The notes: generated by a model not told the origin, from the sequence alone. A DNA stretch of 63,935 nt, filler included, from Reclinomonas americana ATCC 50394 (GCA_048213135.1; 9 parts of 3 records of this genome joined end to end with filler, not necessarily neighbours in it), one strand, 5' to 3'. Positions 1,004-28,950 are shown, counted from the whole stretch's first letter. Program-made: numbers and translations.

Positions 1004-1332
1004 CTAAGAACCGAGAGAATGGGATGGCTCACCGGCACTCACAATGTGCAGACCATCGGGAGAGACGGCCACAGACGACACCCATCCAGTGTGTCCCTCC
1101 AACCGCCGCACTTCCGCCCCGCTAACCAGTGACCGCACTCGCACTGCCTCGGCGCCACAGCCGCTCACAATGTGCAGACCATCGGGGGTGATGGCGAGCG
1201 AGTACACCGCGTAGGTGTAGCCGTCCAGGATCTGTGTGAAGCGCAGAAGGTGAGGCGACAAGGGCAGGCACACTCACGGACACAAGCACACGATGACCAC
1301 GCAAGTGCGCATATTCACACCTTGGTTGCCAT
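1004..1332 (-). pseudogene. Truncated WD40-repeat family copy (MATK micro-exon 1332-1321, second exon from 1231, about 1.6 repeats)
   Basis: ATGGCAACCAAG|GTGTGA donor, then CACAG|ATCCTG acceptor. The exon reads ILDGYTYAVYSLAITPDGLHIVSG...RRLEGHTGWVSSVAVSPDGLHIVSAG and then loses similarity. Confidence 0.7.
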
Positions 1333-2228
1333 TCTCCGTGTGTGTGTGTGAGAGAGAGAAAGAGGGTGTGTGTGTGCGTGCGTGCGCGCGTGTGTGCGTG
1401 TGCGTTACGAGAAGCAGCAGCGAGAGGCTGATTCATGAATTCATCCGACGGAATATCAACATCCTCTTTCTCTCTCGCGCGTGGTGTGCGCCTCGCGGTG
1501 CTGTCTGTGTCTCAGTGCCCCCTCTTTCTCCGCGTCCTCGGCGTGGTGCTCCCTTCTCAAACTGCAAAATGAGTGAGATGTTGCGGCATTGAATGTGCGT
1601 GCATGCATGCATATGCCGAGCCTGGACAACTCGACCCGCCATGATCCCTCCGAGCCACGCATGTGAGTCGGATGGAGAGGCAACAACACACGATTCTGAA
1701 AGAGAGCGACGAGGCATCGCAACTCGTGAGTGGGTGCGTCACACCAGTTGTCTGGACACACAAGCATGTGTGGGCGCAACTCCCTCTCCTCGTGCCCGTG
1801 TGCGGCGAGAAGGGTGGCCCTCTGAATCGATGCTTGACGTGCTCAGCATGGACATGCAGTGCCAGTGTGAGGAGGGGAGGCGACCATGATGCCACTGGCC
1901 GCTGCTTCAAAGCCACAGGCTGGCGTCTCCGCCGCGTTCGAATGACAAGGCGACATGAGCTCGAGGGCACAAGGCTTGTGTATGTGGGTGGATGAGCGAG
2001 GACTCGCTCAATGCCGAGCAGCGCGTGTCTGTTCATTCCATGGTCTCACCTCAACCACACACCCACACCTCCTTCTTGGCATGCTCCACTGCACTGTGCT
2101 GCATCTTCTTTCTCGCGGCCTCGACTTGGCAATGCAACAAGGAAGCACCTGTGTGCACCAGGCGGTGTGGTGGCCAACATGACAGAGTTGCGCAGTGACA
2201 GCAATCGGTCTTCGTACATTCATTGAGC
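1333..2228. repeat. WD40-array spacer A, copy 1 (about 0.9 kb, non-coding)
   Basis: Blocks such as CATCCGACGGAA.ATCAACA, GAGATGTTGCGGCATTGAATG, CACGATTC.GAAAGAGAG and GCGTGTCTGTTCATTCC recur in the same order, with minor variation, at 18.2-19.1, 20.3-21.4 and 27.8-28.7 kb. Confidence 0.9.
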
Positions 2229-2750
2229 TCACTCCGTCCNNNNNNNNNNNNNNNNNNNNNNNNNNNNNNNNNNNNNNNNNNNNNNNNNNNNNNNNNNNNN
2301 NNNNNNNNNNNNNNNNNNNNNNNNNNNNNNNNNNNNNNNNNNNNNNNNNNNNNNNNNNNNNNNNNNNNNNNNNNNNNNNNNNNNNNNNNNNNNNNNNNNN
2401 NNNNNNNNNNNNNNNNNNNNNNNNNNNNNNNNNNNNNNNNNNNNNNNNNNNNNNNNNNNNNNNNNNNNNNNNNNNNNNNNNNNNNNNNNNNNNNNNNNNN
2501 NNNNNNNNNNNNNNNNNNNNNNNNNNNNNNNNNNNNNNNNNNNNNNNNNNNNNNNNNNNNNNNNNNNNNNNNNNNNNNNNNNNNNNNNNNNNNNNNNNNN
2601 NNNNNNNNNNNNNNNNNNNNNNNNNNNNNNNNNNNNNNNNNNNNNNNNNNNNNNNNNNNNNNNNNNNNNNNNNNNNNNNNNNNNNNNNNNNNNNNNNNNN
2701 NNNNNNNNNNNNNNNNNNNNNNNNNNNNNNNNNNTGAATGGTCGACACAG

Positions 2751-3788
2751 GTCCTGGAGGGCCACACTGGAATGGTGTGCTCACTTGCTGTCACCCCCGA
2801 CGGTCACCATGTGGTTAGCGGCGGCGACATGACTGTCCGAGTGTGGTCTCTGACGAGCAGAGAGGAAGTGCGGCGGTTGGAGGGACACACTGCGTGGGTG
2901 ACCTCCGTCGCTGTCACTTCTGACGGCAACTGCATTGTGAGTGGCGGCTATGAGAAGACTGTGCGGGTGTGGTCTCTGGCGAGTGGCGAAGAAGTGCGAC
3001 GGTTGGAGGGGCACTCTGAAAGAGTGCGATCTATCGCCATTACTCCCGATGGTCTGCACGTTGTGAGCGGCAGTGAGGACAAGACAGTGCGGGTGTGGTC
3101 ACTGGCGAATGGGGCACTTGTGCGACGGTTGATGGGGCACTCTGGCATGGTGCTCTCCGTCGCCATCACGCCGGACGGTCACCACATTGTCAGTGGCAGC
3201 TGGGACAGCACTGTACGAGTGTGGTCTGTCGCGAGCGGAAAGAAGTACGGCGACTGGAAGGGCACACTGGAAGAGTGTGGTCTGTCGCCGTCTCTCCCGA
3301 CGGTCAGCATGTTGTGAGCGGGGGCGATGACCATACGGTACGAATGTGGTCGCTGGCGAGTGGAGAGGTAGCACAGAGGTTGGAAGGGCACAACGGTGCA
3401 GTGCTGTCTGTTGCCGTCACTCCCGACGGCCAGCACGTTTTGAGTGGTGGAGTGGACAACACGGTGCGCATGTGGTCGGTGGTGAGTGGGCAACAAGTGC
3501 GACGGTTGGAAGGGCACACTGGCTCGGTGTGGTCTGTTGCAGTCTCTGCTGATGGCCAGCACATCGTGAGTGGCAGTCAGGATAAATCGATCCGAGTGTG
3601 GTCCTCGCCGAGTGCGCTGGCGCGGCAAGAGGTTGCGGCCGCGCGACTGGCCGTGCTGGCCGTCAACGAGCTGCTTGCCGGCGGGGATGACGACGGCGAC
3701 TGTGACTGGATCCTGATCGATGTCGTGCTGCGGTGTTTTGTGTTGGAGGATGCAGAGATGATTGACCATCGTGCGCCTGGATGGTGCT
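2751..3788 (+). CDS. WD40 exon with 7 repeats and APGWC(WTE)-type tail; one frameshift near 3240; contig probably inverted
   Basis: Seven GH..V.S.AV.PDG..V.SG..D.TVRVW repeats across ORFs 2223-3317 and 3095-4372. Acceptor CACAG at 2746-2750. Tail LARQEVAAARLAVLAVNELL...DWILIDVVLRCF. Confidence 0.85.
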
Positions 3789-4056
3789 NNNNNNNNNNNN
3801 NNNNNNNNNNNNNNNNNNNNNNNNNNNNNNNNNNNNNNNNNNNNNNNNNNNNNNNNNNNNNNNNNNNNNNNNNNNNNNNNNNNNNNNNNNNNNNNNNNNN
3901 NNNNNNNNNNNNNNNNNNNNNNNNNNNNNNNNNNNNNNNNNNNNNNNNNNNNNNNNNNNNNNNNNNNNNNNNNNNNNNNNNNNNNNNNNNNNNNNNNNNN
4001 NNNNNCGGTAAGAGAGAGAGAGAGAAGCAGCCACATACACGCGCATGTGAGCAGAC

Positions 4057-4068
4057 CTTGGTTGCCAT
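4057..4068 (-). CDS. MATK micro-exon (probable first exon of the 2751-3788 WD40 exon)
   Basis: Minus strand ATGGCAACCAAG|GT, identical to the leaders at 1332 and 24840. Confidence 0.7.
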
Positions 4069-4199
4069 TGGAGAAGCGGAAGGAAAAATGCCTCTTGTGT
4101 CTTCTCTTTTTGGTTCGCTTCTGTTGACTTTCTCTCTTCTGATAGCAAGCTACCTGGTTGGTACGGTGGTAAACGAACAGTCTGTTGTTTCTCGTGTGT

Positions 4200-6096
4200 G
4201 TGTTATGTGTGTGTGTGATTTGCTCGCTCCGGATTGTCACTGTTTCCCGCCTTTCTTCTCCCGCCTTGCTCTGAGGCGTCTTACATCCCTCGCCAGGCTG
4301 CAGCCAGCACCCCACATAGCATATGGTAGTGTGGGCGACGTGACTCCGATGATGCGTGTGGGCTTTCGATGACCGACATGGGACTCGTCGCTGTAGCGAT
4401 GAGAAATCGGCAGAATGGACGCGCAAGGCGGTGACACGAGGTGGCGCTCCGCTGCATCGCGCTGCTGACCAGCGACACTCCCTTTTGACTGGCCTGCATT
4501 CTCTATCAACGAGGACTGGCATGTCGTGCTGCTTGGATACGCAGTTGTGGCCCTAGGCCAGGTGTGCTGGTGCTACTGCATTCCCGAGAATCCAAGTCAT
4601 GGATACCTCACCCCGTCTTGGATCGATCCACAGCAAGGTTAACGAGGGCACGATGAAAAAAGAGAGCCACAAGGGACGGGAGAGAAGCGACCAGCACAGC
4701 AGCACAGCGATGGAAGAGGCAGCTGTGTTGTGTGTAGCCTCCCCTTCACCCAAATCACAATCAATGCCTCGTGCCTTCAATCACACTCACAGTCGGCCGG
4801 TGAATCGTCTCATGCAGGCACTGTGAAGCACGGAACCACGTGTCTTCGCATGCCAATCACTTGCCAGCACGCTTGTGTTACGATCACACATAGAACCGAG
4901 TCAGTCAAATCTCCATGTCTCACCAACTTGTTCCTCAACGCAAATGCAGAACGCACACGCACCATGAGTTGCTGGCCTCGCACGTGTCTGCAGTCTCCCA
5001 TGACCACCACATGGTCACTCGACAGAGACGGCGGCAGCCAAGGTGTGCACACCATCGATCCGCGCAGACCTGCCAGCCGGGATTGAAAACGATCCACCGA
5101 CCAGGCCACCCATCGCACAGCACGGCACGCAGGTGTACACCCACCACGCCACGCCCTCCATGGCATGGACGGCCTGCAGGAATGAAGTGAGTGGGAGGGA
5201 AAGAGGAAAGAGAGATCAAGACGCAAACATGGTCACACACCTGCATCGTGCATCGGTGGGATTCAGGTGTGGAGCCGACTGAGTGAGGTGACAGCCGGCA
5301 GCGGGCGATGCACAACACGCCTGCAATCATTACGGAACAACGAGGGGGACCTGCACCTAAGGTGTCTGCATGTCGGTATGCTGTGAGCGAAAGAAATGAG
5401 GAAGGAGAGAGATATCTGCTCTGTCTCACGTGACGAAAACACCGATCAGCACCTGATGCCAACACGCGTTTGGTCAAGAGGCAAGCCGAGGGAAGCTTCT
5501 GCACACACAACCATCCTTCAATAGGGGGAGAGCGGAGTCAGTCTGCAGTCATGTCACCTCACACACTTCGGTGTCGAGATGCTCACCATGATGGACTGAC
5601 CAACTCGACGGCAGAATGGCAGTCGGAAAACGGTGAGCAGACCAGCATGCTCGGCCTCGAGCTTGTGCGGCAAGGAGGGGTGGATGGCTGGGGAAGCAGA
5701 TAAGCGCACAAAGGAGGGAGACGGTGGAGAAAGAGAGAGACTCTGCAAGGGAGAAAAAAGGGGAGAGCTGAATGACAGGCATTTTTCAGAACCGGAAAGA
5801 GAATGTCCGCGGCGCACAGGCACAATGGGAAGCAGGGCGGTGGCGCCAAGGAAGTGTGCAAAACAAGACGCGAGGAAATAGACAACGGCGACTTGCTCTC
5901 CTGAAGCACACGCATGCACGAATAAGATGCACACACAACAGACTTCACAACAAGACAAAATGACACAACAGACTCCCAAGTGATTCATCGCGCTCGCATG
6001 CGCACACACAAATAGAGGTGAGAAAGAGACACGCCAACAGATGGAGACATGCTCCACGCCCACCCACTCTCATTCACATGAAAGGGGAACAAGCAC
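4200..6096. repeat. WD40-array spacer B, copy 1 (about 1.9 kb)
   Basis: Colinear with about 24865-27063, e.g. TCAACGAGGACTGGCATGTCG, CTTCAATCACACTCACAGTCGG and AATAAGATGCACACACAACAGACTTCACAACAAGACAAAA. Confidence 0.9.
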
Positions 6097-6125
6097 NNNN
6101 NNNNNNNNNNNNNNNNNNNNNNCAG

Positions 6126-7161
6126 ATCATTCAGAGTCTCGCTGCTGCAGTGCGATCCATCGCCGTCACTCCCGACGGCAAGCACATTGTTGGTGGATGC
6201 ATGGACAGTACCGCCCGAGTGTGGTCTGTGGCGAGTGGCAAGGAGGTGCGACGGCTGGATGGACACACCGCCACGGTGACATCTGTCGCCGTCACTCCCG
6301 ATGGCCACCACGTTGTCAGTGGCAGCTATGACAACACAGTTCGAGTGTGGTCGCTGGCTAGTGGGGAGGAGGTAAGACGGCAAGAGGGACACACTTGTGC
6401 GGTGGCATCTGTCGCCGTCACCCCCGACGGTAAGCACGTCATCAGCGGCAGCTACGATAGCACAGTGAGAGTGTGGCTGTTGGCAAGTGGAGAGGAGGTG
6501 CGACGGATGGAGGGACACGGAGGGCTATACTCTGTTGCCGTCACTCCCGATTGTCAACACATTGTCAGTGGTGGTAGCGACAACACCGTACGGGTATTGT
6601 TGCTGGCGAGTGGGGAGGAGGTGCTGCGGTCGGAGGGGCACACCGACATCGTGGAGTCTGTCGCTGTCACTCTCGACGGTCGAGCGCATCGTGAGCGGCA
6701 GTTTCGACGAGACAGTGCGAGTGTGGTCATTGGCGAGTGGAGAAGAGGTGCGACGGTAGAGGGACACACTGACTGGGTGTCTTCTGTCGCCATCACTCCC
6801 GAGTCAGCACATTGTTAGCGGGAGCGGAGACAGCACTGTGCGGGTGTGGTCTCTGGCGAGTGGCGAGGAAGTACGACGGTTGGAGGGACATGAGGGATGG
6901 GTGTCGTCTGTGGCCGTCTCTCCCGATGGTCAGCACATTGTGAGTGCGGGTGGTAAGGACAGGACCGTAAGAGTGTGGTCCACACCGCGTGGCCTTGCTC
7001 GGTTCGAACTCGACGCCGCACGCTCGGCCATGCATGCTGTGCAGGAGATGCAGGAGGAGGAGAGGGCCACCGAGGAGGAAGTAGATTCTCGATGCCTTCC
7101 CGAGCTGGTTCTGCGCTGCTTCATCGTCGAGGATGCCGAGGTCGTCTTTTTCCGGTGCTGA
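6126..7161 (+). pseudogene. WD40 exon with 7 repeats and FFRC-type tail; about 3 frameshifts (near 6682, 6757, 6802); contig probably inverted
   Basis: Repeats are spread over ORFs 6018-6818, 6487-6759 and 6838-7161. Tail STPRGLARFELDAARSAMHAVQEM...CLPELVLRCFIVEDAEVVFFRC. The frameshifts may be real or read errors. Confidence 0.75.
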
Positions 7162-7299
7162 GTTGGTGAGTCGGAGGAAGGGAAGGTGGCTACTGGTGAT
7201 CGTGAGTTGTTTTTCGTGTCTTGCGAGGGAGAGTGGGTGATCATGTGGGTGCGGGTGGGGAAAGAGAGTACGACAGAGGAGGAGAGAGAGGTCGTTGTT

Positions 7300-7399
7300 N
7301 NNNNNNNNNNNNNNNNNNNNNNNNNNNNNNNNNNNNNNNNNNNTTAATTAATTAANNNNNNNNNNNNNNNNNNNNNNNNNNNNNNNNNNNNNNNNNNNN
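7300..7399. other. Artificial contig-join linker (44 N + TTAATTAATTAA + 44 N); also at 13876, 24433, 37415, 48256, 52682, 55629 and 57894
   Basis: The same 100-bp pattern, with stops in all six frames, occurs eight times. Confidence 0.97.
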
Positions 7400-12500: not shown

Positions 12501-13804
12501 TTCGTCTCTTCTTCATCTTTCTGTTGATTCTCTCGGTTCAACCACTCACCGACGCCCACTGCGAGACATCATTCCAGGTCAATTCATCGTCACTGGAAAT
12601 CTCCACCACACCGCCATCAAATGCTTCGGACGTGTCCGCGTAGTACTCAAACGAGTACGCGTGATCAAAGGTGACAACAAAGGCCTTTGTAGGATCACTC
12701 GACACGACCACCGGGGGCGACTGCAGCCACGTGTCGCTGGTAAAAGCAGAGTCCTCGCCGTAGAATAGTGAATTGCCGAACGTAGGCGTGATAATGTACC
12801 ACGCATTCGCAGTGCCACCAGCCTTCCACACTCCCTGGATATAGGGCGTGTCCACAGTCTCTGTCGCGGAAAGCGCTGGTGCGTATTCCACGCTGACAAG
12901 ACTTACAAACGAGCCGACTGTCTCACGGCACGCCTTGTCACCGGTGATCGACACATGGCCTTGCAGTAAAATCGGATCGATGTTGCGCAACGATGACGCT
13001 AGGTGGAACGAGAAATCGATTGTTGTCGACTGTCCAAAAGACGGCACAGGAACAATCTTGGACAGCACGGCAAACTCCACGTCGGCAGGTGTGTTGGGAT
13101 CCGCAACGAGCGTCACCGTCATTGTTGTGTTGATGCCAGTAAAGTATTGGGGATTGCGAACAACCACTCGCACCACACCCTCCTCACCGGCTTGCTGCGA
13201 GCATTTGTGCACAGATACGAGAGAGTGAGCTGGTGGGAAGCGTAAGAATGGTGTCGGATGCGAAAATGAACGCACGCACCACCAAGCCATCGTGATTGCA
13301 GTTCACAGCACCCTCTTCCACGCTCGCTTGGTCCACCACAATACTGAACTTGGACCAATCATTGTCAAACGACTCAACCACATCAGAGTTGTCATACTGC
13401 GTCGGCGAGGCCGCGCATGCACCTGAGTGTGGACAACTTGTTAGTAAGGCTCAGTGGCATGAACAGGCAGTGACAAGAACAGGCAGGGCTTACCGAGTCC
13501 GCGCACAGCAAATGCTGCAGCCATAGTTACTGCGTCTGCTGGGTTCACAACGCTGGTCGCCATCAGCAATGCATCACGCTGCTGTGTAAATGTGGCATCG
13601 GCTGGTGTGATCAGCAAGCCGGCCACCACGTAGTCGGCCATGGCGCGCTTGACTTGCGCAAAGGTGCGACCATAGGCGTTCTTGTGGAGGTTGATGTAGG
13701 CCTGCATGAAGGAGGAGAGGGGAAGAAGTGAGTAAATGGAGAAGGAGTGGGATGAAATCCAAACACAGACGGACCTTCAACGAGAGACACAGACAGACGG
13801 AGAC

Positions 13805-13875
<71 letters not shown>

Positions 13876-16312
13876 NNNNNNNNNNNNNNNNNNNNNNNNN
13901 NNNNNNNNNNNNNNNNNNNTTAATTAATTAANNNNNNNNNNNNNNNNNNNNNNNNNNNNNNNNNNNNNNNNNNNNGAAGAAAAAGCGAAGGGCGGAAGAA
14001 AAGGAGTGAAGGGATACGCGAATTATGAGGTGGAATGAGAAAAATGGAATGATTTTGCCTTCCGCTTCATCCTTTTCCCATCCCTCCCAGCTTACCTCAA
14101 ACATGGCACTTGCCCAGATCTCACCCACATTGTGAAGCTCGGAATTCGATATGCCGTAGCTCGCAACGGGGCCAACGGGCACTGGTGGAGTGAACAGGAA
14201 GGGCACGTTGTCGGAGATGTACTTGAACGTCAACGGGTTCTTGCTCTTGTCAACCGAATACGGAAGACGCCGGACGCCAAAGTACGCGTCGAGCACGACA
14301 TAAGCGGCGATGGCATACGTTCCGTCCAGGCTGTCGCCCTCACGCAACACCTGGTGCAGGGCGACAAAGTCTGCGATGCCTTCCGACATGGAGTCACACT
14401 GTATGCTGCCGCACTGCGCGAGGCGGTGATGGAGATAGTGGCCCCACTCGTGACTGGTGCTCGTGTCCAGCGCACTGGCACGTGTCCTCGCTGGCTTCAA
14501 CTCTCCAGTCACAGTTCCGTTGCTGCTGTTGAGAATGGCGAGCAGAGCGTTACCGTCGGTGTTGCCGATCGATACAGTCGGGATGTTCACAGACGGCGCA
14601 AATAATTCAGAAGGGATATCTATTGCGGGATCGAAGGTGTTAATAATCAGCATGCCGACGGCACCCGCTTGCTCGGCGAGGGCGGCCTGGGTCTGCGGAC
14701 TGCATATGTAACCAGCACTCTGAATAAGCGCAATGGATCCAGTCACATTCTCCGTCACGGCTGCGCACGCCGCGGGATCGATGGTCGCCGCCACAATCGG
14801 GGCAGACACCTTCGCTCGTGTGCGTGTGCGTGTGCGTGTGTGAGTGGCACATTGTGAACGCACGACGAGGGACATCCACGAACCGAATATACCACCGGGC
14901 TAAAACCCGCCGTGCGAGTTGGGTACGACACACCCGGCGGTGTCACCAGCACACGTGGACCGGAATCGCCGGTGACACCGACGGTTGAAAGAAACAATTG
15001 CATGCGTGGGTGCATGCCATCAGACGGAGTCGACATGTTGGCGTTGTCCACACCGCCGAAGTCCTGCGCCTCCGCCTTCATCGAATCACCGCCCACACCA
15101 CCGCGTCCGTAGTTGTCGTTCTGCGCGTTGCCGGCCGCCTCATCGAACCCAGAGTCGTACCAGTAGTTGTGCAGGAAGTTGATGGTGTAAAACAACTGCG
15201 TAACATCGGCCATGGTCTGGCTCTGCGACGCCAGCGCATCTTTCGTCTCGTCGTAGACGTAGTCGAAGGTGTTTGGTGAAGTGATGGTGGCACGCAAGTC
15301 GCCCGCACTGAATCCGTCGGGTGACGCCAAGTCGGCGTACGCGTCCACATTATTACCGCGCGTCTCTGTGGCACCCGATGGCAGCCACGGGTCGTTAAAC
15401 TTGTTGAACGAGTCCATCGAAACAAGCGACTGTGGCACGAAAGCCGGGAACAGGCCGTCGGGCATGCCAGTGGGATGCGGCGTCCAATCCTCTGTTGGGC
15501 CGTCGGCCGGCAGTTTGTCGCCGTCGGTGCGCGCCCACACGCGGTAGTTGAAGGTCTCACTGGCAGTGAGGTTGGCCGACTCGAGCACGTGCCACGAGTC
15601 GCTGGCGATGACGAAGCGGAAGACGGAGGGTGATGCGGTGGTGGAGGAGGTAGCGTCAAACTCGACAAAGAAGGCCGGGAGGAGGGTGCCGGAGGGGGTG
15701 GGGAAGAAGGCCTGCTCATAAGGGAAAGGGAGGGTGAGCGGGAAGGAGAAGGGGAAAGGGGAAGGGGAAAGGGAAGGGAGAGGGGAACAGAGAGGGGAAC
15801 AGATAGGGGAAGGGGGAGGGGAAGAGGAAGGGGCAGGAAAGAAAGAAGGGCGCAGAACCACGGGGGAGGGAGAGGGCGAGAGACGAGATGAGATAAAGTG
15901 AGAGAGAAAATGATGGGAGCTTGTGGCTTGCACAGCGATAAGAGAGGAAAGAGGAGAGAAAATGAAGGAATAGGATGAGGAATGAGGAACGAGGTGATGA
16001 CAGAAAAAGGCAGGGCAAAGTGAACGAGAAAGCTGGTACGAAGGAGAACGACGACGGAGAGCATCGGCAGAGTAACAAGGATGATCTCCTTCAGCTTCAT
16101 GCACAGTGCGCTGAGCAAAGGATACGCGGAGAGGAGAGAAGGGCGCAGAAGGGAATGAGAGAAAAAGTGTGCCCACGTGAGCGAGAAAGCATGTCAAGAG
16201 ACAACAGTGAAATGCTGATCCACCTAGCGCCAAGCGCAGAGACTGTGTGTGCGTGTGCGTGTGTGAGAGAGAGAGGAGACGTAGGGAGACGAGAGAGATA
16301 AGAGTGACAAAG

Positions 16313-16375
<63 letters not shown>

Positions 16376-17921
16376 AGAGAGAGAGAGAGACNNNNNNNNN
16401 NNNNNNNNNNNNNNNNNNNNNNNNNNNNNNNNNNNNNNNNNNNNNNNNNNNNNNNNNNNNNNNNNNNNNNNNNNNNNNNNNNNNNNNNNNNNNNNNNNNN
16501 NNNNNNNNNNNNNNNNNNNNNNNNNNNNNNNNNNNNNNNNNNNNNNNNNNNNNNNNNNNNNNNNNNNNNNNNNNNNNNNNNNNNNNNNNNNNNNNNNNNN
16601 NNNNNNNNNNNNNNNNNNNNNNNNNNNNNNNNNNNNNNNNNNNNNNNNNNNNNNNNNNNNNNNNNNNNNNNNNNNNNNNNNNNNNGCCGTGCGGACTGCG
16701 GACAGACACCGACGCGCCCTCACTCGTGTACAGCCACACATCGCTGTGCAAACCGTGGCGCGTGAACTCCTCCACGCGCACATCGTCGACGCTGACGGCA
16801 TTGTCGGCGCCGAAGTGAGCGTTCAGCGCAGCGACCAGGGCCAGCTTGTACTGTCCGACGTCGACGTCGGCGGGCACCGCGAAGGCGCCATCGACAGACG
16901 AGGAGGCGACGTGGTGCTCGGAGGAGGGCGTGAAGGAGGCAACGTCAACCAGCGATCCAGTGGCCGACAGCAACTGGAACGAAGTCGGGTGGAGAAGCAT
17001 GCGAACTTCGCTGTTCAACACCTCGACACCGTGGACCGACTGGCGGACGTGTGCGGCCGCGACACGCCCACCGTGCAGTGAGGTAACCACACGAGCCACA
17101 TGCAGGGAGACGGAGGCGGACTCGGCTGCGAGCGGGGGAAGGCACAGAGTAAGCACACATCGAACAGAATTCAATTTCCAAGAGCTGCACAAGCTCGGAA
17201 AAACTGTGTGTGCAATGATTCGACGGAAACCAAGCAAGACCACACGCACGATGGCATCACACGGGTTGCCGACATGGGCGAGTGGGTGGTCAAGGAAGAG
17301 CGACGTAGAGAGCGCGGAGAGAATCGGTGTGCGTTAACGTTAAAACATGCAAGCTGACACGAACACGGCCACCGACACGCAGCGCTGCGCAACGCGCGTG
17401 CGGATCCGGAGGGACATTAAACACAGAGAGACGTTTCTGCCTCCTCTTTCTCTCTGTATCACTCACCAGCAGGTGTCGCGTGCACTCCAAAGCTGTGCTG
17501 ACGGCGAGTGCGAGTCGAAGAAGTGGTGGCCACGGACATTTCCACTTGTACACCCACGAGACGACGCACGTGAATCAGCGCCGCATCCTCAACCGTGCGC
17601 ACACTCGCTGGTAGCACGTCGTGATGCGCCGACGAGGTAGAAGAGGAGCTCGAGTGAGTGGCGTGGAATGAGAGGTGAATGCGCGAGGAGGGCGCGCGGT
17701 TCCACTGTGCATCATTGTCAGCAGGAAATACTTGAGTCGTGATAAACGCGCGTGTGTGTGTGTGTTTTCTGTGTGCGTGTTCGTTGCGTGTGCGCATCAA
17801 AACTGAAACGCACCGAGGGAGAGCTAGGGTCGCGCGAGAGGGCACTCGCAGTTAACACAGTGAGTGCGCCCACAACGAGAACCAGCGTCAGCATGGCGGA
17901 ATGCCGAATATCGAAGCGCAT
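9569..17921 (-). CDS. Secreted M36 (fungalysin-like) zinc metallopeptidase with propeptide, PA insert, beta-sandwich domain and C-terminal EGF-like/Cys-rich repeats; multi-exon
   Basis: Signal-like MLTLVLVVGALTVLTASA; ETRGNNVDAY; GFDEAAGNAQ.DNYGRGG; NANMSTPSDG..PRMQ; PA-like AEQAGAVGMLIIN; HEWGH followed by MSEGIADF; GVRRLPYS; ELHNVGEIWA; AFAVRGLG; DGGVVEIS..GWLIDNV; CxC..W/F.G..C repeats. MFE|AYINL splices across the 13876 linker. Confidence 0.88.
10085..10310. repeat. Imperfect (CAGCA)n microsatellite in an intron of the M36 gene
   Basis: Visible pentamer repeats; they account for the spurious CCAVL ORFs. Confidence 0.9.
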
Positions 17922-18236: not shown

Positions 18237-19064
18237 CTTTGCTGTCACTCTCCCTCTGTGTGTGTGTGTGTGTATGTGTGTGTGTGTGTGTGTATGTGTG
18301 TGTGTGTGAGAGAGAGAGAGAAGCACTCTGTTCATTCGGCGGAACATCCATCAACTCTCTCGCGCACTTGTCAGCGTGCGCCTCGCGGTGCTTCCTCTCT
18401 GCATCCTCGTCATGGTGCTCCCTTCTCAACCTGCGCTGTGAGTGAGATGTTGCGGCGTTGAATGTGCATGCATGACGCGCCTGTTCAACTCGACACGCCT
18501 TGAGCATCAACCCTCTCCTGGGTGGAGAGGCAACACCACACGATTCAGAAAGAGAGTAACGCGGCAGCGCAACTCGTGACTGCCCCAGTTGTCAAGGCGC
18601 ACATGCAGAAACGAGTGTGCAGGGCAAGTGCACACCCTCTCCCCGTGGCGAGCGGGGGCGAGAAGGGTGGCCATCTGAATCGATGCTTGTGCTATCAATG
18701 GTCATGCGGTGCCCCTGTGAGAACGGAGGCGACAATGATGCCACTGGCCGCTGCTTCAAAAGCGACACGGGAGGTCTCCACATTGCGGTCAAATGACAAG
18801 GCGACATGAAGGCACAAGCACAAAGCGTGTGTGGACCGGTGAGCGCAGCGCGTGTCTGTTCATTCCTTGGTCTCACGTTTACCACCTACACACACCTCGC
18901 ACTCGGGATACTCTTGTTACAATCCCACTGCATTACGCTGTGTCTGCTTTCTGGCTTCCTCCACTTCGCAGGGCAACCCCAGCGTGCGCACGAAGCAGTG
19001 TGGCAGTCAACAAGACAGAGTGGCGCGCAACAACAGCAATTGGCCTTTGTACATTCACTAAAGC
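18237..19064. repeat. Spacer A copy ending in an orphan degenerate leader (GTGACAGCAAAG|GTGTGA, 18248-18237) with no WD40 exon downstream
   Basis: Colinear with 1321-2228. The ATG has become GTG, and sequence left of about 18210 is unique. Confidence 0.85.
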
Positions 19065-20267
19065 TCACTCCGTCCAGCTCCAACCAGGCGCACGGTGTTC
19101 AATAACCGCTGCATCCTCCGACACAAAACACCGCAGCACGACATCGACCAGGATCCAGTCACGATCGCTATCGTCATCTTCTTCGGCAAGCAGCTCGTTG
19201 ACGGCCTGCACGGCTGATCGTGCGGCCGCAAGCTCTTGCCGCGCCAGCCCACGCGGCGTGGACCACACTCGGATCGTCTCGTCAGAACTGCCACTCAGAA
19301 TGTGCTGCCCGTCGGGTGTCACTGCCACGCACGACACCCATCCAGTGTGTCCCTCCAACCGCCGCACTTCCTCGCCACTTGCCACCGACCACACCCGTAC
19401 AGTTTGATCCCAACTGCCACTAACAATGAGCTGGTCATCGGGTGCTACAGCCACTGCACATACCCCACGCGTGTGGCCTTCCAGTCGGCGCACCTCCTTG
19501 CCACTTGCCACCGACCACACTCGGACTGTCTTGTCATCGCTGCCGCTCACGACGTGCTGGCCATCGGGTGCTACAGCCACTGCACATACCCCACGCGTGT
19601 GGCCTTCCAGTCGGCGCACCTCCTTGCCACTTGCCACCGTCCACACTCGGACTGTCTTGTCATCACTGCCGCTCACGACGTGCTGGCCATCGGGAGTAAC
19701 AGCGACAGACCGTATCTCGTCAGCGTGTCCCTCCAGCTGTCGCACCTCATCGCCACTTCCCAGCAACCACACTCGGACTGTGTAGTCTCCACACCCACTG
19801 ACAATGTGCTGACCATCTGGGGTGACGGCGACAGACGTCACCGCGTCGGTGTGTCCCTCCAACTGTCGCACTTCATCGCCTCTTGCCAGGGACCACACAC
19901 GTACGGTACTGTCTCCACACCCACACACCATTTGCTTGCCATCGGGGGTGACAGCGATAGAGAACACCATGTAAGTGTGTCCCTCCAGCTGTCGCACCTC
20001 ATCGCTACTTGCCAGTGACCACACACGAACTGTGTCGTCCGCACACCCACCGACAATGTGCTTGCCATCGGGAGTGACGGCGACGGATCGCACTGTTGCG
20101 AAACTCTGAATGATCTGCGTCGACCACTCGCGATGAGACGCATGCACAGCAACATTCAAAGACACACACACACACACACAACAACACAAAGAACAACACA
20201 AGCACACGAATGCACGCACAGACGACAACAACGCAAAGTGCGCACACATTCACACCTTTGTGTCCAT
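19065..20267 (-). CDS. Intact stand-alone 7-bladed WD40 protein, about 353 aa (exons 20267-20256 and 20114-19065)
   Basis: ATGGACACAAAG|GTGTGA, a 141-nt intron, GCAG|ATCATT, then seven ~42-aa repeats and a tail ending APGWSWTE-stop, with an open frame throughout. Confidence 0.92.
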
Positions 20268-20378: not shown

Positions 20379-20411
<33 letters not shown>

Positions 20412-21077: not shown

Positions 21078-21123
<46 letters not shown>

Positions 21124-21366
21124 CGTGGCCTGTGTGGCGAAAAGAGTAGCCATCTGAATCAATGCTTGATGCGCTCACCATGTTCATGCGATGCCAGAGT
21201 GAAAAGAGGAGGCGGGCAGTGATGCTGCTTCAGAAAGCAACCACGCCGCGTTCGAATGACAGGGCGACATGGGCGGATGTCGATATGTGAGCGAGGACTC
21301 GCTGAACGGTAAGCAGCGCGCGTGTCTGTCGCCGTTCCATGTCCTCATCTCATCCACCCACACACC
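20268..21366. repeat. Spacer A copy upstream of the intact WD40 gene (gap inside)
   Basis: Same conserved blocks as the other A copies; similarity ends near 21366. Confidence 0.85.
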
Positions 21367-21604
21367 AGAGACGTCTTCGACGTCAAATTTAAATGCAGAC
21401 AGATGGTAGACGACATGCACCTTGTGCGGTAAGAAAGTTAGATCGCGATCATCTGGGATGGAGAAGTCCCGAGCAGCGACTCGAGACGTGTCAGCAAGCG
21501 ACGGGAGGACAAGTGTTCGGAAAAACGAGATCCGCAAAATCGAACACGCACACACCACCACCAACAAGCGCCACCACTCTTCCAACCCCGTGTACCAAAC
21601 AACA

Positions 21605-22137
21605 ATGTCCACCAACCGTGGTGAGTGGTGCCGTGCTGGCTTCAGCTTCATACTCTCCTTTGTTGTTTGTCTGATAATTTCTCCACCTCCCCTCTTCGCA
21701 GTCACCTCTCGTCTCCTTGTGACGCTGTTGTGTGTCATCATCCTGCTCGTCGGCGTCTCGCATGGTGAGTCGCACGACGTGCATGGATGTACTCGCGTGT
21801 TGTGGGCGCGGTTGTTGAGAGTGTGTGTGTAAATGGCGGACGGAGCCGCGCACCATGTCGCGCCCGATCTTAAACTGTTTTCTGTGTAACCAGGTGTGCC
21901 TCTGCCGGTCAGGCAAATCTCCACCGGCTTCAAGGGGACGTCCATTGCACCGCCGGTGGGTACTGGCGTCACGTACTCGCAAGACGACCACTGGAGTGTC
22001 TCGTTGAACGGCCAATCAGCCACGAAGGCTTACGTGAGCAACCCTTCGCTGTGCTACTCGACCATTTGCTGGGACTCTGCCTCTGCGGCCTCTGCGTGGG
22101 TGACTCCATGTGAGTAGTCGAGATCGGATTCTGTGCT

Positions 22138-22180
<43 letters not shown>

Positions 22181-24432
22181 GTCGCGGTCGGTCTCTGTCT
22201 ATCTGCGTGTCTCTCATAAAGCACCAGTCTTCCCGTCTGTCTCTTTACGTCTCTCTGTGCTCCTCCTCCTCAACCATTCTCTCTCTCTCTCTCTTTCCCC
22301 ATCGATATCCATTTGCCTCTCTCGCACAGCCAGCAGCAGCACGGCTCCGTTTGTGTGGGACGACAAGACATTGCAGTACACGACCAGTTTCGACATGACA
22401 GGCTACGATCCGAGCAAGGCAATTCTGCAGATTCGAATCGAGGGCGATCCCATTCCTGCCAACCCGACGACCGCCTTTGTACAACTGACGCCTGCCGGCA
22501 CCTCCAACGTGATCACAGTGCCATATCCTGCGTGGTTATACAGCAGTACGTATTTGCTGTCCAACCATCCGTGGGTGACGGTAGATGGTTGGGCCCCCAA
22601 GGCCGGTAATGTGCTGTCGGTGAAAATCTACAATGGCGCCAACGGCACCGGACTCCGAGTGGAAGCGCAATGTGAGTGTGCAGCATGCTTGCGGCGTCAT
22701 GACTGGCTGCGCACTCTTACTAACTTCCCAAACCGTGCATGCAGTGCTCTGCAAAACAAGCGCATGCGCGGCGCCATTGACGTGCTGCGTCGGCCTGTGC
22801 CAGGACCTCCTCCACGATGTCAACAACTGCGGCACGTGCGATAAAGTGTGCCCCGTTGCGTTGACTGTGATCACGAGACAATCTCCCTCCCATGACCATA
22901 ATCTCATTCATCTACCGTTCATTGCCCGCCTTCCTGCGCCCGCCCTTCCTTCCCTTCTTCTTCTTCTTCTTTTCCCACAGAACCCTCAAGCATGCTGCCG
23001 AGGCGCGTGTACAGATCTGACTTCGAGTATCAACAACTGCGGCGCGTGTGGCAAGATTTGCGGTCCGGCAGATTCCTGTTGCGCTGGTGTGTGCACCAGT
23101 GTGCTCAGCATGCAGACGGATCCCAAGAACTGCGGCAAATGCGGCAACGTGNNNNNNNNNNNNNNNNNNNNCGCCGCCGGTCAGGACTGCTGCAACGGCG
23201 TGTGCTACACCATCAGCAACTACGCCACCGACGCCAAGAACTGCGGCAAATGCGGCAACGTGTGCCCCACTGGCCAGTCGTGCTGCAACGGCGTCTGCAC
23301 CAATCTCAGCAACACCGCCAGCAACTGCGGCACTTGTGGATAGTCGTGCGCCGCCGGTCAGGTCTGCTGCAACGGCTTGTGTGTCTTCCCCAGCGCCTTT
23401 ACGTTTGACAGCAAGAACTGCGGTTCTTGCGGCTTCGTGTGCCCCGCCGCTGGCCAGTCATGCTGCTACGGCAAGTGCGTCTTTGTGAGCAGCAATTCGA
23501 GCAACTGTGGCACCTGCGGCAAGACGTGCGCCACCGGTCAGTCGTGCTGTAACGGCGTCTGCGTCAGTACCCAGAGCTTCGCCACGGACGCCAAGAATTG
23601 TGGCACGTGCGGGCATGTGTGCCCGCTGTCGGCACCCAATTGCTGCAGCGGATCGTGCGTGGCACCGACCAATGATCCGCTGAAATGCGGTCCGTGCGCC
23701 AATATACAGTGTCTTCCCGGTCGTGCCTGCTGCAGCGGCGTCTGTATCAATCTCAGCAACGACACCAGCAACTGTGGTACTTGTGGGAAACCGTGCGCTC
23801 CCGGTCAGGACTGCTGCAACGGTGTGTGTTACGCGATCAGCAACTACGCCACCGACGTCAAAAACTGCGGCAAATGCGGCAACGTGTGCCCCACTGGTCA
23901 GCCGTGCTGCGCCNNNNNNNNNNNNNNNNNNNNNNNNNNNNNNNNNNNNNNNNNNNNNNNNNNNNNNNNNNNNNNNNNNNNNNNNNNNNNNNNNNNNNNN
24001 NNNNNNNNNNNNNNNNNNNNNNNNNNNNNNNNNNNNNNNNNNNNNNNNNNNNNNNNNNNNNNNNNNNNNNNNNNNNNNNNNNNNNNNNNNNNNNNNNNNN
24101 NNNNNNNNNNNNNNNNNNNNNNNNNNNNNNNNNNNNNNNNNNNNNNNNNNNNNNNNNNNNNNNNNNNNNNNNNNNNNNNNNNNNNNNNNNNNNNNNNNNN
24201 NNNNNNNNNNNNNNNNNNNNNNNNNNNNNNNNNNNNNNNNNNNNTGCTGCCGGCCAGGACTGCTGCAACAGCGTGTGCTACACCATCAGCAACTACGCCA
24301 CCGACGCCAAGAACTGCGGCAAATGCGGCAACGTATGCCCCACTGGCCAGTCGTGCTGCAACGGCGTCTGCACCAATCTCAGCAACAACGCCAACAACTG
24401 TGGCACCTGTGGCAAGACGTGCGCCACCGGTC
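21605..24432 (+). CDS. Secreted protein: signal peptide, beta-rich N-domain and many STIG1-like Cys-rich repeats; in-frame TAG at 23341; 3' incomplete
   Basis: Spliced MSTNRV-TSRLLVTLLCVIILLVGVSHG-VPLP start. Repeats of the form D.KNCG.CG.VC..GQ.CC.G.C. The N-domain contains YTTSFDMTGYDPSKA...NGANGTGLRVE. Confidence 0.8.
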
Positions 24433-24532
24433 NNNNNNNNNNNNNNNNNNNNNNNNNNNNNNNNNNNNNNNNNNNNTTAATTAATTAANNNNNNNNNNNN
24501 NNNNNNNNNNNNNNNNNNNNNNNNNNNNNNNN

Positions 24533-24840
24533 CCTGGGGTGATGGCGACAGAAAACACCACATCAGAGTGTCCCGTCAGCCGGCGCACAGCCTCGCCACT
24601 TGCCAGAGACCACATTCGAACGGTGCTGTCCATGCACCCACCAACAATGTGCTTGCCATCGGGAGTGATGGCGACGGATCGCACCACTGCGAGACTCTGA
24701 ATGATCTGCGTCGATCATTCGCGGTGAGGCGCACATGCACAGCGACACAAACTACAACTGCACATACGCACGAGCACACCAATGAACACACAGACACCAA
24801 CTACGCAAAAGTGCGCACACATTCACACCTTGGTTGCCAT
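24533..24840 (-). CDS. WD40 family copy, 5' part (exon 1 24840-24829, exon 2 from 24705, cut by the contig end)
   Basis: MATK|IIQSLAVVRSVAITPDGKHIVGGCMDSTVRMWSLASGEAVRRLTGHSDVVFSVAITP. Confidence 0.85.
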
Positions 24841-24864
24841 TCTCCGTGCGTGCGTGCGTGCGTG

Positions 24865-27063
24865 TTTGTGAGATTGTGCTCGCTCATGTCACCGTTCCCC
24901 GCCTTTCTTCTCTCGCCTTGCTCCAAGACGTCGTTCATCCGTCGCCAGGCTGCAACCAGTACCCCACACACCATACAGCAGTGTGTGAACGATGTAGCTT
25001 CGTTGATGCATGTGGGCTTTCGAAGACCATGAAATCGGCAGAATGGACATGCAAGGTGGTGATGATGAGACGAGGTTGTCGCTCCACTCCGCTGTGCATG
25101 TCCAGCTGCGACACTCTCTTTCGACTGGCCTGCATTATCTCTCAACGAGGACTGGCATGTCGGGCTGCTTGGATACGCAGCTGTGGCCCTGCACCCGAGA
25201 ACCCATTGAGCGGCGAGTCTTGAAACCTCACACCTCCTTGGATCCGCCCACAGCGAGGTTGACGAGGGCACGACGAAGAAAGAGAGCCACAAGGAACAAG
25301 AGAGCACAGCGATGGAAGAGGCAGCTGCGTCGTGAGACTTGCCTCCTGTCACCCAAGTCACAGTCAATGCCTCGCGCCTTCAATCACACTCACAGTCGGT
25401 CGGTGCATTGTCTCATGCATGCACTGTGTGGCACGGAACCACGTGTCTTCGCATGCCAGTGACGAGTCACTTGCCAGCACGCCTGTCACACAGAATTGAG
25501 TCAGTCAATCTCCAAGTCTCACCAACTCGCTCCTCAACGCAGATGCAGAACACGTACGCACCAGGCCACGCGCGCGTCTGCAGTCTCCCATGGCCATCAC
25601 CATCATTACTTGGCGGCGACAGCAGCAACCAAGAAGCGCACATCATCGATCCGCTCTGACTTGCCAACCGGGATCGAGAACGATCCACCGACCAGGCCAC
25701 CCATCGGGAACACTACACGCATGTGTCCACCCATGAGTAGATTGCCGAGCACGCGTCTGCAGTCTTCCATGGCCACCACCATTGTCACTCGACAGAGACG
25801 GCGGCAGCCAAGAAGCGCACATCATCGATCCGCTCCGACTTGCCAGCCGGGATTGAAAACGATCCACCAACCAGGCCACCATCACACATCACGGCACACA
25901 TGTGCACATCCACCCAACCACGTTCTCCATGACGTGCACGGCCTGCATAATTGAGGTGAGTGGGAGGGAAGGAGGAGAGAGAGATCACGAAGAACAGGGC
26001 CACACAACTGCATCGTGCATTGGCGGGATGCGAATGGGGAGCCGAGTGAGTGAGGTGACAGCCGGGAATGGGCGATGCACATCACGCCTGTCCTCGCCAC
26101 GACATGCTTTCCATGGTGCATGCCGGTGTGCTGTGAGCGAAAGAATGGAGAAAGGAGAGAGAAATCTGCTCTGTCTCACTGACAAACACACCGATCAGCA
26201 GCTAATACCAACACGCGTTTGGGCAAGAGGCAAGCCAGGAGATGCTCACACAACCATCCTGCAAGGGAGAGAAGGAGCGGAGTCAGTATACAGGTATGTC
26301 ACCTCAGGCAAGCACGTGCTTCCAAGGTGCCTGCATATCGGTGCAATGTGAGCAAAAGAATGGAGGAAGGAGAGAAAAATCTGCTCTGTCTCACCTGACA
26401 ATCACACCGATCAGCATCTGAAACCAACACGCGTTTGAGCAAGATGCAAGCCAAGGGACGCTCACACAACCATCCTACAAGAGTGCAGAGTGAGCAGAGT
26501 TAGCATGTAGTCAACCACCCCACACACTTCGGTATCGGGATGCTCACCATGGCCATGATGGACTGGCAGGATGGCAATTGGAACACGGTGAGCAGACCAG
26601 CATGTTCGGCCTCGAGCGTGTGCGGCAAGGAGGGGTGGATGACTGGGGAAGCAGATAAGCGCACAAAGGAGGGAGACGGTGGAGAAAGAGAGAGAGAGAG
26701 ACTCTACAAGGGACAGAGAAGGAGGGCTCGAGAGCTGAAAGACAGGCATTCTTCATAGCAGGAAGGAGAATGTCCACAGCACACAGGCACGATCGGACAC
26801 AGAGTAGTGGCGCCAAGGAAGTATGCAAAGCAAGACGGGAGGAAACAGACAACGGCGACTTGCCCTCCTGAGGCACACACATGCACGAATAAGATGCACA
26901 CACAACAGACTTCACAACAAGACAAAAAGACACAACAGACTACCAAGTGATTCATCGCGCTCGCACACACAAATTGAGGTGAGAAAGTGAGACGCATGAA
27001 GAGGGAGACATGCTTCACGCCCACACACTCTCATTCACGTGTACATGACAGGGCAACAAGCAC
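24865..27063. repeat. Spacer B, copy 2, with internal duplications (about 25570-25880 and 26120-26480)
   Basis: Colinear with 4200-6096. CAAGAAGCGCACATCATCGATCCGCTC occurs twice, and AATCTGCTCTGTCTCAC...CACACCGATCAGCA occurs twice. Confidence 0.88.
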
Positions 27064-27442
27064 GGGAGAACAATTCTTCATCAACGACCTCTCTCTCTTC
27101 CTCTGTCGTCCTCTCTTCCCCCACCCACACTCCCTCGTAAGACACGAAAAAACAACTCACGATCACCAGCAACCCTNNNNNNNNNNNNNNNNNNNNNNNN
27201 NNNNNNNNNNNNNNNNNNNNNNNNNNNNNNNNNNNNNNNNNNNNNNNNNNNNNNNNNNNNNNNNNNNNNNNNNNNNNNNNNNNNNNNNNNNNNNNNNNNN
27301 NNNNNNNNNNNNNNNNNNNNNNNNNNNNNNNNNNNNNNNNNNNNNNNNNNNNNNNNNNNNNNNNNNNNNNNNNNNNNNNNNNNNNNNNNNNNNNNNNNNN
27401 NNNNNNNNNNNNNNNNNNNNNNNNNNNNNNNNNNNNNNNNNN

Positions 27443-27768
27443 AATGTGCTGGCCATCAGGGGTGACGGCGACACAAAGCACCCATCCAGTGTGTCCCACC
27501 AGCCGTCGCACTTCTTCTCCACTTGCCAAAGACCACACACGAACGGTACTGTCCATACACCCACCGACAATGTGCTCGCCGTCGGGAGTGACGGTGACGG
27601 ACCGCACCGAAGAAGCGAGACTCTGAATGATCTGTGCCGACCATTCGCGATGAGACGCACAGGCACAAAAACAACCACCGCACATGCACGAGCACAAGCA
27701 CACGCTGCGAATGCATGTACAGACACCAACCACGCAAAGTGCGCACACATTCACACCTTTGTTGCCAT
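27443..27768 (-). CDS. WD40 family copy, 5' part (exon 1 27768-27757, exon 2 from 27631 into a gap); 3' flank is of the FFRC type
   Basis: MATK|IIQSLASSVRSVTVTPDGEHIVGGCMDSTVRVW... Bases 27080-27176 are the reverse complement of the 3' flank at 7185-7299. Confidence 0.85.
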
Positions 27769-28659
27769 TCTCCGTGTGGTGAGAGAGAGAGAGCGAGAGA
27801 GAGTGCGTGTGTGTGCGTGTGTGTGTGAAGTTAAGCACCAACTCTATTCATCCGACGGAACATCAACATCAACTCTCTCTCGCGCGTGTGTGTGTGCGCC
27901 TCGGTGCTGTCTGTGTCTCTGTGCCCTGTGTCTCTCTGCGTCCCCGTCGTGGTGCTCCATTCTCAACCAGCAATGTGAGTGAGATGTTGCGGCATTGAAT
28001 GTGCATGCATGCATGCTGAGCCTGTTCAACTCAACACGCCTTGAGCATCAACTCCCTCTGAGCCACGCACGTGAGTCGGGTGGAGGCCAACAACACACGA
28101 TTCAGAAAGAGAGCGAAGAAGCAGCGCAGTTCGTGAGTGGGGTGCGTCACACCATGGCCAGTTGTCTGGGCACGCACGGCGGGAAACGAGTATGCAGGGC
28201 AAGTGCACTCCCTCCCCGTGGCGTGTGTAACGAGAAGAGTGGCCATCTGAATCGATGCCTGACGCGCTCTCCATGTTCACGCGGTGCCAGTGTGAGAGGG
28301 GGAGGCGGGCAATGATGCCACTTCAAAAGCCAAAGGCTGGCATCCACGCCGTGTTCGAATGACAGGGCGACATGAAGGCACAAGCACAAGGCGTGTGTGT
28401 GGGTGGGAGAGCGAGGACTCGCCCAACGCCGAGTAGCACGCGTGTCTGTTCATTCCATGGTCTCACCTCAACCACCCACGCACATCCACACACACCTCGC
28501 ACTCGGGATTCTCTTCTTGCAATCCCACTGCACTGTGCTGTGTCTGCTTTCCGGCTGCCTGCACTTGGCAAGGCAGTGGAGAAGCACGTGTGAGGCGGTG
28601 TGGCGGTCAACACGAGAGAGTCGCGCAGTGACAGATCGGTCTTCGTACATTCATTGAGC
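27769..28659. repeat. Spacer A copy
   Basis: Colinear with 1333-2228. Confidence 0.9.
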
Positions 28660-28950
28660 TCACTCCGTCCAGCACCATCCAGGCGCACGGCGTTGAATCA
28701 CCTCTGCATCCTCCAGCACGAAGCACCGCAGCACGACATTGACCAGGATCCAGTCACGATCATCTTCGTCGACGAGCAGCTCGTTGACAGCCAGCACGGC
28801 TGAGCGTGCGGCCGCAACCTCTTGTCCCGCCAGCCCACGCGGCGTGAACCACACACGGATCGTTTTATCCGCACTCCAACTCGCAATGTGCTGGCCATCG
28901 GGAGTAACGACGACAGAGTATACCCATCCAGTGTGTTCCCTCCAACCGTC
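28660..28950 (-). pseudogene. WD40 family 3' fragment (last repeat and APGWCWTE tail); 5' part replaced by low-complexity repeat
   Basis: HTGWVYSVVVTPDGQHIASWSADKTIRVWFTPRGLAGQEVAAARSAVLAVNELL..DWILVNVVLRCF; an extra base lies in GGGAACAC. Confidence 0.75.

Follow-up and report, generated by a model that had tools for sequence, protein, structure and literature searches.

Repetitive WD40 proteins occur in bacteria, fungi, and protists and combine a conserved scaffold with diverse predicted hotspot residues, according to the portions of Hu et al. (2017, PMC5587647) drawn on here, which also separate a Highly Repetitive class (internal identity of at least 0.7) from a Moderately Repetitive class (0.4–0.7). 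The HNWD proteins carry a HET effector and a NACHT domain, and their repeats are up to 100% identical; the parts of Paoletti et al. (2007, PMC1805685) used here describe concerted evolution within and between loci, as well as four codons under positive selection. The Gcp1–3 proteins of jakobids and heteroloboseans are Pex7-like WD40 proteins (PMC8134430), which are set apart from these systems by their description and are not called repetitive in the consulted part of that paper. Here, we describe WD40 genes in a 63,935-base stretch of DNA from Reclinomonas americana ATCC 50394 (GCA_048213135.1; hereafter, the whole stretch is called the window), a draft eukaryotic scaffold that contains 32 N runs, GT-AG introns, and abundant microsatellites. 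These genes probably form a lineage-restricted family, arranged head to tail in tandem, whose products are free-standing seven-bladed WD40 proteins ending in an orphan tail; each paralogue would present its own binding face on a constant coupling tail, and one copy is intact here.

The propeller, its variable face and its tail

Searches with tblastn, for which a single blade, the N-terminus, and the tail of the intact locus E served as queries, revealed eight WD40 loci and one relic exon 1, and nhmmer with a profile of the 126-nt unit found 28 units in the window. The original prediction, made from the DNA before this analysis, had claimed at least seven loci, a number that is thus borne out. 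The tblastn search took in the whole window, and no WD40-like sequence was found in its second half; the WD40 coding DNA is confined to 1031–28950. Tandem Repeats Finder detected period-126 arrays at 2791–3603, 6160–6946, and 19291–20084.

The product of locus E comprises 4 + 349 = 353 residues, in which Pfam recognizes seven WD40 repeats (PF00400, E=4.2e-82). The AlphaFold model made without an alignment has 28 strands followed by a helix at 291–314, with a mean predicted local distance difference test (pLDDT) score of 83.5; an 11-row alignment added a second helix at 323–345 and raised the mean to 90.2. The strands make up seven four-stranded blades, and the best Foldseek match is the WD40 domain of PkwA (5yzv; 44% identity, template modelling (TM) score 0.98), followed by the designer WRAP-T propellers and 2ymu, which is titled a highly repetitive propeller. 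Most blades have the full Asp-His-Ser-Trp tetrad. Mean pairwise blade identity is 0.62 in E and 0.66 in both B and D, and such values of 0.62–0.66 fall into the moderate rather than the highly repetitive class, by a measure that differs from the contiguous-repeat one of the paper defining these classes.

Within the 42-residue blade, entropy is highest at units 10, 11, 13, 29, and 31 (2.5–3.4 bits), where 8–12 residue types occur in 24–28 blades. Units 9, 22, 28, and 42 follow with 1.5–2.05 bits, and the remaining positions have 1.5 bits or below. DSSP assignments on the AlphaFold models place strand a at units 12–17, b at 23–28, c at 33–37, and d at 1–5. These limits assign units 10 and 11 to the D-A loop and units 29 and 31 to the B-C turn, with unit 13 at the beginning of strand a; by established WD40 topology, all five belong to the top face. 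The hypervariable positions named in the original prediction are therefore real. With five such sites per blade, a protein has up to 35 variable top-face positions, and each of the 24 complete blades has a distinct five-residue combination. Blades of the same gene are 0.69–0.74 identical over the scaffold versus 0.08–0.17 at the five sites; a scaffold with 69–74% identity between blades within a gene is not the almost fixed one that had been claimed.

The last blade is directly followed in E, H, B, and D by the motif STP.GLAR.E...A.AV.E, an acidic loop, and VLRCF[IV].EDA, giving a tail of 60–65 residues that is predicted to consist of a helix, the acidic loop, and a second helix. The ratio of nonsynonymous to synonymous substitution rates (dN/dS, omega) of the tail is 0.24–0.68. 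A tail profile matched three proteins among 1.84 billion representatives, namely, P0122, P0123, and P0124, which share the motif and are the sole database proteins with the family tail; no long protein was matched in this search. A word-index search with the tail alone returned nothing among 134 candidates of 194–618 aa, and in JGI metagenomes the tail profile gave 90 matching pattern stretches, none of which was confirmed. Searches with the whole protein returned generic WD40 matches alone, at 30–62% identity. Judging from these searches, the tail appears to be an orphan domain private to the family.

All three tail-bearing proteins are uncharacterised. P0122 (116 aa), an open reading frame (ORF) of an expressed sequence tag (EST) from the jakobid Reclinomonas americana, is the sole named relative of the family; it is 68% identical to blade 7 plus the tail of locus D, and its EST origin indicates that a relative of the family is transcribed. 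P0123 (394 aa) starts directly with the propeller and is collinear with E over its full length, suggesting that a propeller with this tail and no other domain is seen independently. It is 29% identical to E and has irregular, divergent blades with insertions, implying that the family defined by the tail predates the branch with regular blades seen in the window. P0124 is a 147-aa fragment.

Gene structure, array order and neighbouring genes

The exon-1 pattern ATGGMNACAAAGGTG (15-mer, up to two mismatches) has six matches in the window versus 0.59 expected by shuffling. Five of them, on the minus strand, directly precede WD loci A, C, E, F, and G, and the sixth (45309–45323, plus strand) is unrelated. 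As predicted, all five visible 5′ ends have a 12-nt exon encoding MATK or MDTK, followed by a GT...CAG intron. When the five 5′ regions are aligned, conservation is highest in the block CACGGAGAATGGCAACMAAGGTGTGAATGTG, and the acceptor CAG followed by ATCATTCAG (ATCCTGGAC in A) is kept as CAG and ATC in all four copies that reach it. An alternative AG acceptor is present in E only, and in F an in-frame TGA stands shortly ahead of the CAG. The introns are 141 nt in E, 125 nt in G, 123 nt in F, and 89 nt in A. The EVRRLEGH segment of a regular blade aligns in register with the four residues of exon 1 plus the opening residues of exon 2, suggesting that these residues together supply the outer strand needed to close the ring.

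Locus A consists of an exon 2 fragment (1031–1231, minus strand; two blades, the second of which is last-blade-like, as recognized by tblastn, unit alignment, and sequence), an intron (1232–1320), and the 12-nt exon 1 ATGGCAACCAAG (1321–1332, minus strand). The fragment breaks off after strand b of its second blade, at about 1031, and the sequence beyond is unrelated. The adjoining short spacer sp1 (1333–2239, minus strand) is 78% identical to 27846–28670, and its first bases (2239–2229) supply the final codons and stop of gene B. Exon 2 of B, with seven blades and the tail, lies at 2751–3788 within the contig 2735–3788 and is written on the plus strand, the contig being inverted; one nucleotide is deleted near 3242, and gaps cut the exon off at both ends. 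This exon belongs with the exon 1 at 4057–4068 (ATGGCAACCAAG), which together with the start of its intron forms the gap-cut locus C (4006–4068, minus strand). A long spacer, sp2 (4069–6096, minus strand), is 76–83% identical to 24862–27038, and no Pfam domain was found in its ORFs. Exon 2 of locus D (6126–7161 within the contig 6123–7299), with seven blades and a divergent tail, is likewise written on the plus strand in an inverted contig; three indels at about 6683–6810 (an inserted G, one deleted base, and a 2-base deletion, all within about 130 nt) leave its start and tail in different frames. The breaks in B and D are not homopolymer slips, and a sequencing error could explain the one-base break in B.

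Locus E comprises exon 2 (19065–20114, minus strand), with seven blades, the tail, and a stop codon, an intron (20115–20255, 141 nt), and exon 1 ATGGACACAAAG (20256–20267, minus strand). Of the three second exons that had been described as complete, those of B, D, and E do contain seven blades and a helical acidic tail, but only that of E is an open frame, B and D being frameshifted. Downstream of E, a copy of sp1 (18249–19064, minus strand) leads to a relic exon 1 (18237–18248, minus strand), in which ATG has become GTG in front of an intact donor, GTGTGAAT; no exon 2 follows it, and it marks the edge of a duplicated unit. Locus F (24533–24840, minus strand) has exon 1 at 24829–24840, an intron at 24706–24828, and about 1.5 blades before a gap. 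It is followed by a copy of sp2 (24841–27176, minus strand) and locus G (27443–27768, minus strand), with exon 1 at 27757–27768, an intron at 27632–27756, and about 1.5 blades before the gap 27177–27442; the state of F and G is hidden behind these N gaps. Spacer sp1 occupies 27769–28659 (minus strand) between exon 1 of G and the stop codon of locus H (28660–28950, minus strand), which contains a last blade with a frameshifted start, the tail, and the stop. H is preceded by a pyrimidine tract and CAG, with no other blades upstream. The distance from a stop codon to the next exon 1 is about 0.9 kb in two places (H to G and B to A), and the relic after E is a third.

Comparison of junctions and flanks showed that the contig 2735–3788 is inverted in the scaffold. 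The end of B at 3788 (...GGATGGTGCT) and the minus-strand contig start at 2239 (GGACGGAGTGA...) join into the same reading as the end of H (...GGATGGTGCTGGACGGAGTGA) with 0 bases lost, and the first bases of B are the start of exon 2 and face the gap beyond the intron of C. This seamless reading and this orientation indicate that the contig is flipped and that C and B are one gene. The 3′ flank of D (7186–7299, plus strand) matches the DNA downstream of G (27176 to 27080, minus strand), and the match runs on into the long spacer common to 5359–6077 and 26324–27038; therefore, the contig 6123–7299 is also inverted. With both contigs flipped, all copies are on the minus strand, head to tail, in the order D, long spacer, C/B, short spacer, and A; then H, short spacer, G, long spacer, and F; and separately E, short spacer, and the relic exon. 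The window is thus a useful warning on scaffold errors in repeat-rich loci. A gap pattern of 44 N, 12 bases, and 44 N is seen at eight places (7300–7399, 13876–13975, 24433–24532, 37415–37514, 48256–48355, 52682–52781, 55629–55728, and 57894–57993), and this recurrent pattern looks like an artefact of assembly or masking, not biology.

The copies differ in age along their length. Blade DNA is 52–88% identical, and the synonymous difference (pS) at same-residue codon pairs is 0.569 versus 0.884 with codons shuffled within residues, indicating that the blades are old yet unsaturated. The blade tree unites the first blades of D, G, F, and E (support 0.993), the last blades with A2 and G2 (0.953), and E4, E5, and E6 (0.972) in one clade each, the other nodes being weak. 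Blades 4–6 of E (19371–19748, minus strand) have neighbours (E4–E5 and E5–E6) that are 83–87% identical and common variable residues (RGC and DK), and their clade points to recent blade duplication inside E. The tails of E, H, and B differ by a pS of 0.18–0.27 (85–88% identity), the downstream spacers are 79–85% identical, the upstream regions of E, G, and A are 79–84% identical, and exon 1 with the intron is 82–85% identical among E, G, and F. For interior blades compared by position, identity is just 65–74%. Between E and B, the blade matrix has a pS of 0.63 on and off the diagonal alike, and the tail has a pS of 0.18 versus 0.62 for blades 2–6 (Fisher p=4e-8); even when each E blade is paired with its best B partner, pS is still 0.55 (p=4e-6). 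Constrained coding blades are thus more diverged than the adjoining non-coding DNA, and E joins an F-like 5′ end (blade 1, 87% identity) to a B/H-like 3′ end. Young flanks and tails around old interior blades imply that the genes are mosaics, for which the simplest reading would be exchange among family members, by which either the flanks were homogenised or blade sets were swapped with copies outside the window. The tandem family evolves by duplication, loss, and recombination. In the repeat phylogeny, proposed beforehand as a test of shuffling among genes, end blades group by position; the mosaic genes make exchange likely, and HNWD-type concerted evolution is not seen.

Between 1 and 32.5 kb, there are 134 minus-strand stop-to-stop ORFs of at least 70 residues, and the 71 that flank the WD loci were scanned with Pfam; those inside the ATPase, protease, and Stig1-like genes described below and those antisense to B and D were left out. 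No NACHT, NB-ARC, or effector domain was found in these 71 ORFs, which gave WD40 families alone (exons below 70 aa and gap DNA lay outside the scan). A NACHT or effector domain would not fit into the spacers, which measure about 0.9 kb between one stop codon and the following MATK exon. The claim that the genes are stand-alone, lacking NACHT and effector domains, holds up on these grounds and on P0123, which begins with its propeller.

The neighbouring genes include an ENA-type P-type ATPase, an exon of which is 43–51% identical to its best database match, a multi-exon M36 fungalysin-type metalloprotease gene with a PA domain (12541–17249, minus strand), and, between E and F, a gap-broken gene for a cysteine-rich repeat protein with Stig1-like domains (22110–24480, plus strand; E=2e-28). 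None of the three suggests a functional link with the WD40 genes. Farther along the window, 37520–40550 (plus strand) contains long ORFs of 84-, 150-, and 234-nt tandem repeats with Gly/Ser/Thr-rich units, whose one Pfam match, Bflower_2, is weak and below the cut-off, and 62159–62926 (plus strand) contains 120-nt repeats that are BNR/Asp-box, Sortilin-Vps10-like units.

Selection and the competing readings

Over all pairs of the 22 near-complete blades, the nonsynonymous difference (pN) is 0.15 and pS is 0.56 at the scaffold, and 0.61 and 0.71, respectively, at the five sites, although such all-pairs Nei–Gojobori (NG86) counts are too near saturation to serve alone. In the 14 closest pairs, the five-site pN of 0.35 against a pooled pS of 0.325 gives a ratio of 1.08, or 0.73 against the sites' own pS, and the other sites give 0.29. 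Parsimony counting on a FastTree tree yielded S=24.1 and N=100.9 at the five sites (omega 1.02, p=0.51) and an omega of 0.25 for the rest. A Muse–Gaut (MG94) fit in the manner of fixed effects likelihood (FEL) gave class omegas of 0.62 at the five sites (p=0.08 versus 1) and 0.21 elsewhere (p=6e-41). In the per-site fits, 0/42 codons had beta>alpha at p<0.05 and 21/42 were significantly negative, those at units 22, 29, and 36 being incompletely converged (negative likelihood-ratio statistic). The scaffold omega is 0.16–0.29 over the blades of all loci, including B and D. These tests are weak, given deep divergence, poorly supported nodes, likely recombination, and no allelic data. The scaffold is under purifying selection, which speaks clearly for constraint on the fold, and the variable sites change at about the neutral rate, so that the pattern is neither neutral decay throughout nor demonstrated diversifying selection. 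Variation spread evenly with dN/dS near 1, which had been named in advance as the mark of neutral decay, is accordingly not seen at the scaffold, although the variable sites do lie near 1. The proposed birth-and-death repertoire survives as a multi-copy family with birth and death, but diversifying selection on it is not shown (0/42 codons), and the proposed cytosolic location, which has only the absence of an N-terminal extension behind it, is unsupported.

According to the reading that we favour as probable, the family unit would consist of a 12-nt exon (M-A/D-T-K), an 89–141-nt intron, and a single exon that holds the rest of the seven blades and the tail. Its product would be a self-contained, closed seven-bladed propeller with no other domain, in which the exon-1 strand closes blade 7. 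The top face may be the ligand-binding surface, each paralogue might bind something different, and the conserved tail may act as a constant end linking the propeller either to a common partner or to itself. Duplication in tandem, together with loss and recombination, would have left tails, spacers, and 5′ ends that are young and alike around interior blades that are old and unrelated.

Several points weigh against this reading. The sole open frame is that of E (19065–20267, minus strand), one of eight loci in this assembly. We infer the splice of the MATK exon from conservation, its only basis; none of 24 public sequencing runs contains even half of the words of the stretch, the largest share being 0.06 and probably due to microsatellites. 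The pLDDT of the tail is just 53–77, and the tail found no match in the PDB (best E=1) or in the ESM Atlas, where the top score, 0.79, does not rise above noise. Near-neutral variable sites are also expected of unconstrained surface loops. The 32 N gaps and two inverted contigs speak of a poor assembly here, in which errors may account for some of the breaks and certain copies may have been collapsed.

The strongest competitor, which we nevertheless regard as unlikely, is that the array is mostly dead: one ordinary WD40 gene (E, perhaps B) would have a housekeeping-type job, and the rest would be decaying duplicates whose blade differences are meaningless. Five are broken or truncated in sequenced DNA (A, B, D, and H) or survive as a relic exon, two more are hidden by gaps, and the omega near 1 at the variable sites agrees with decay. 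However, the scaffold omega of about 0.2 in all loci, B and D included, indicates that the copies were constrained for most of their history, a relative with a D-type tail is transcribed in Reclinomonas americana, and a sequencing error could account for the broken frame of B.

A diversifying repertoire for non-self or ligand recognition, HNWD/HET-E-like but without NACHT, in which blades are kept diverse and constant parts homogenised, seems distinctly unlikely as well. The variable residues occupy top-face positions of the HET-E kind, as far as these are set out in the consulted part of PMC1805685, all 24 blades are distinct, and the tandem copies undergo birth and death; young tails and spacers beside old blades, which fit homogenised constant and preserved variable parts, are mildly in its favour. 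Against it, the five-site omega is 0.62–1.08 with 0/42 codons significant, the end blades group by position (0.993 and 0.953) at a pS of 0.57 with no concerted evolution, a signalling domain is lacking, and most copies are broken. The fullest version of this idea, of which we are very doubtful, would have up to 35 variable residues per propeller, blade sets kept old and different, the tail, spacer, and 5′ end homogenised or exchanged, and the tail as a common output, making the family a convergent counterpart of HNWD in a protist lineage that branches deeply and is little sampled.

It is highly improbable that the exons are the C-terminal sensor part of genes of the nucleotide-binding, leucine-rich-repeat-type receptor (NLR) or signal transduction ATPase with numerous domains (STAND) class with missed NACHT or effector exons, for although the nearest database WD40 sequences often occur in fusion with domains of the TIR, sigma-factor, kinase, or protease type and N gaps hide some DNA, the 71 flanking ORFs are free of NACHT and NB-ARC, only 0.9 kb separates a stop from the next ATG exon, exon 1 is in register to close the propeller, the 394-aa relative starts with its propeller, and the tail profile matches no long protein.

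Comparison with known systems

DWD/DCAF substrate receptors have a WDxR motif at the end of strand c. The blades described here close with VRVWS[LV]A, which lacks D and R at the corresponding positions. In the main texts of the literature surveyed, there was no account of stand-alone tandem WD40 arrays with the family tail.

The family resembles the HET-E, HET-D, and other HNWD proteins of Podospora in its 42-residue repeats, in variation that falls on a few top-face codons, and in its multiple genes, pseudogenes included. It differs from them, within what the consulted part of PMC1805685 covers, in that no NACHT was found in the flanking ORFs, the blade DNA is 52–88% identical, and the end blades group by position; moreover, positive selection reached significance at 0/42 codons here, with deep divergence and on a tree that is weak. 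The likeness to 126-bp concerted repeats drawn in the original prediction fails for the same reason, since identity of 52–88% with a pS of about 0.57 contrasts with the up to 100% reported in that part of the paper.

The closer counterpart is the repetitive WD40 protein, as represented by the portions of PMC5587647 used here and by PkwA (5yzv) and 2ymu, with which the family shares consensus-like blades, high inter-repeat identity, and complete Asp-His-Ser/Thr-Trp tetrads. Unlike the repetitive proteins of those portions, its members are intron-bearing and stand-alone, lie in head-to-tail arrays, and carry an orphan helical tail, and unlike young repetitive repeats, their blades have a pS of about 0.57. 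The family is probably the repetitive WD40 design in a stand-alone, tandem, and tailed form, for which a role as a recognition repertoire is speculative. If several copies prove to be expressed and polymorphic, it would provide a simple system for the diversification of a propeller face without an NLR chassis. Repetitive WD40 propellers with variable hotspots are known mainly as the sensor ends of bacterial and fungal multidomain proteins; here, the same design is free-standing, intron-bearing, and tandemly amplified with a private tail, in a eukaryote with few close database relatives for its proteins.

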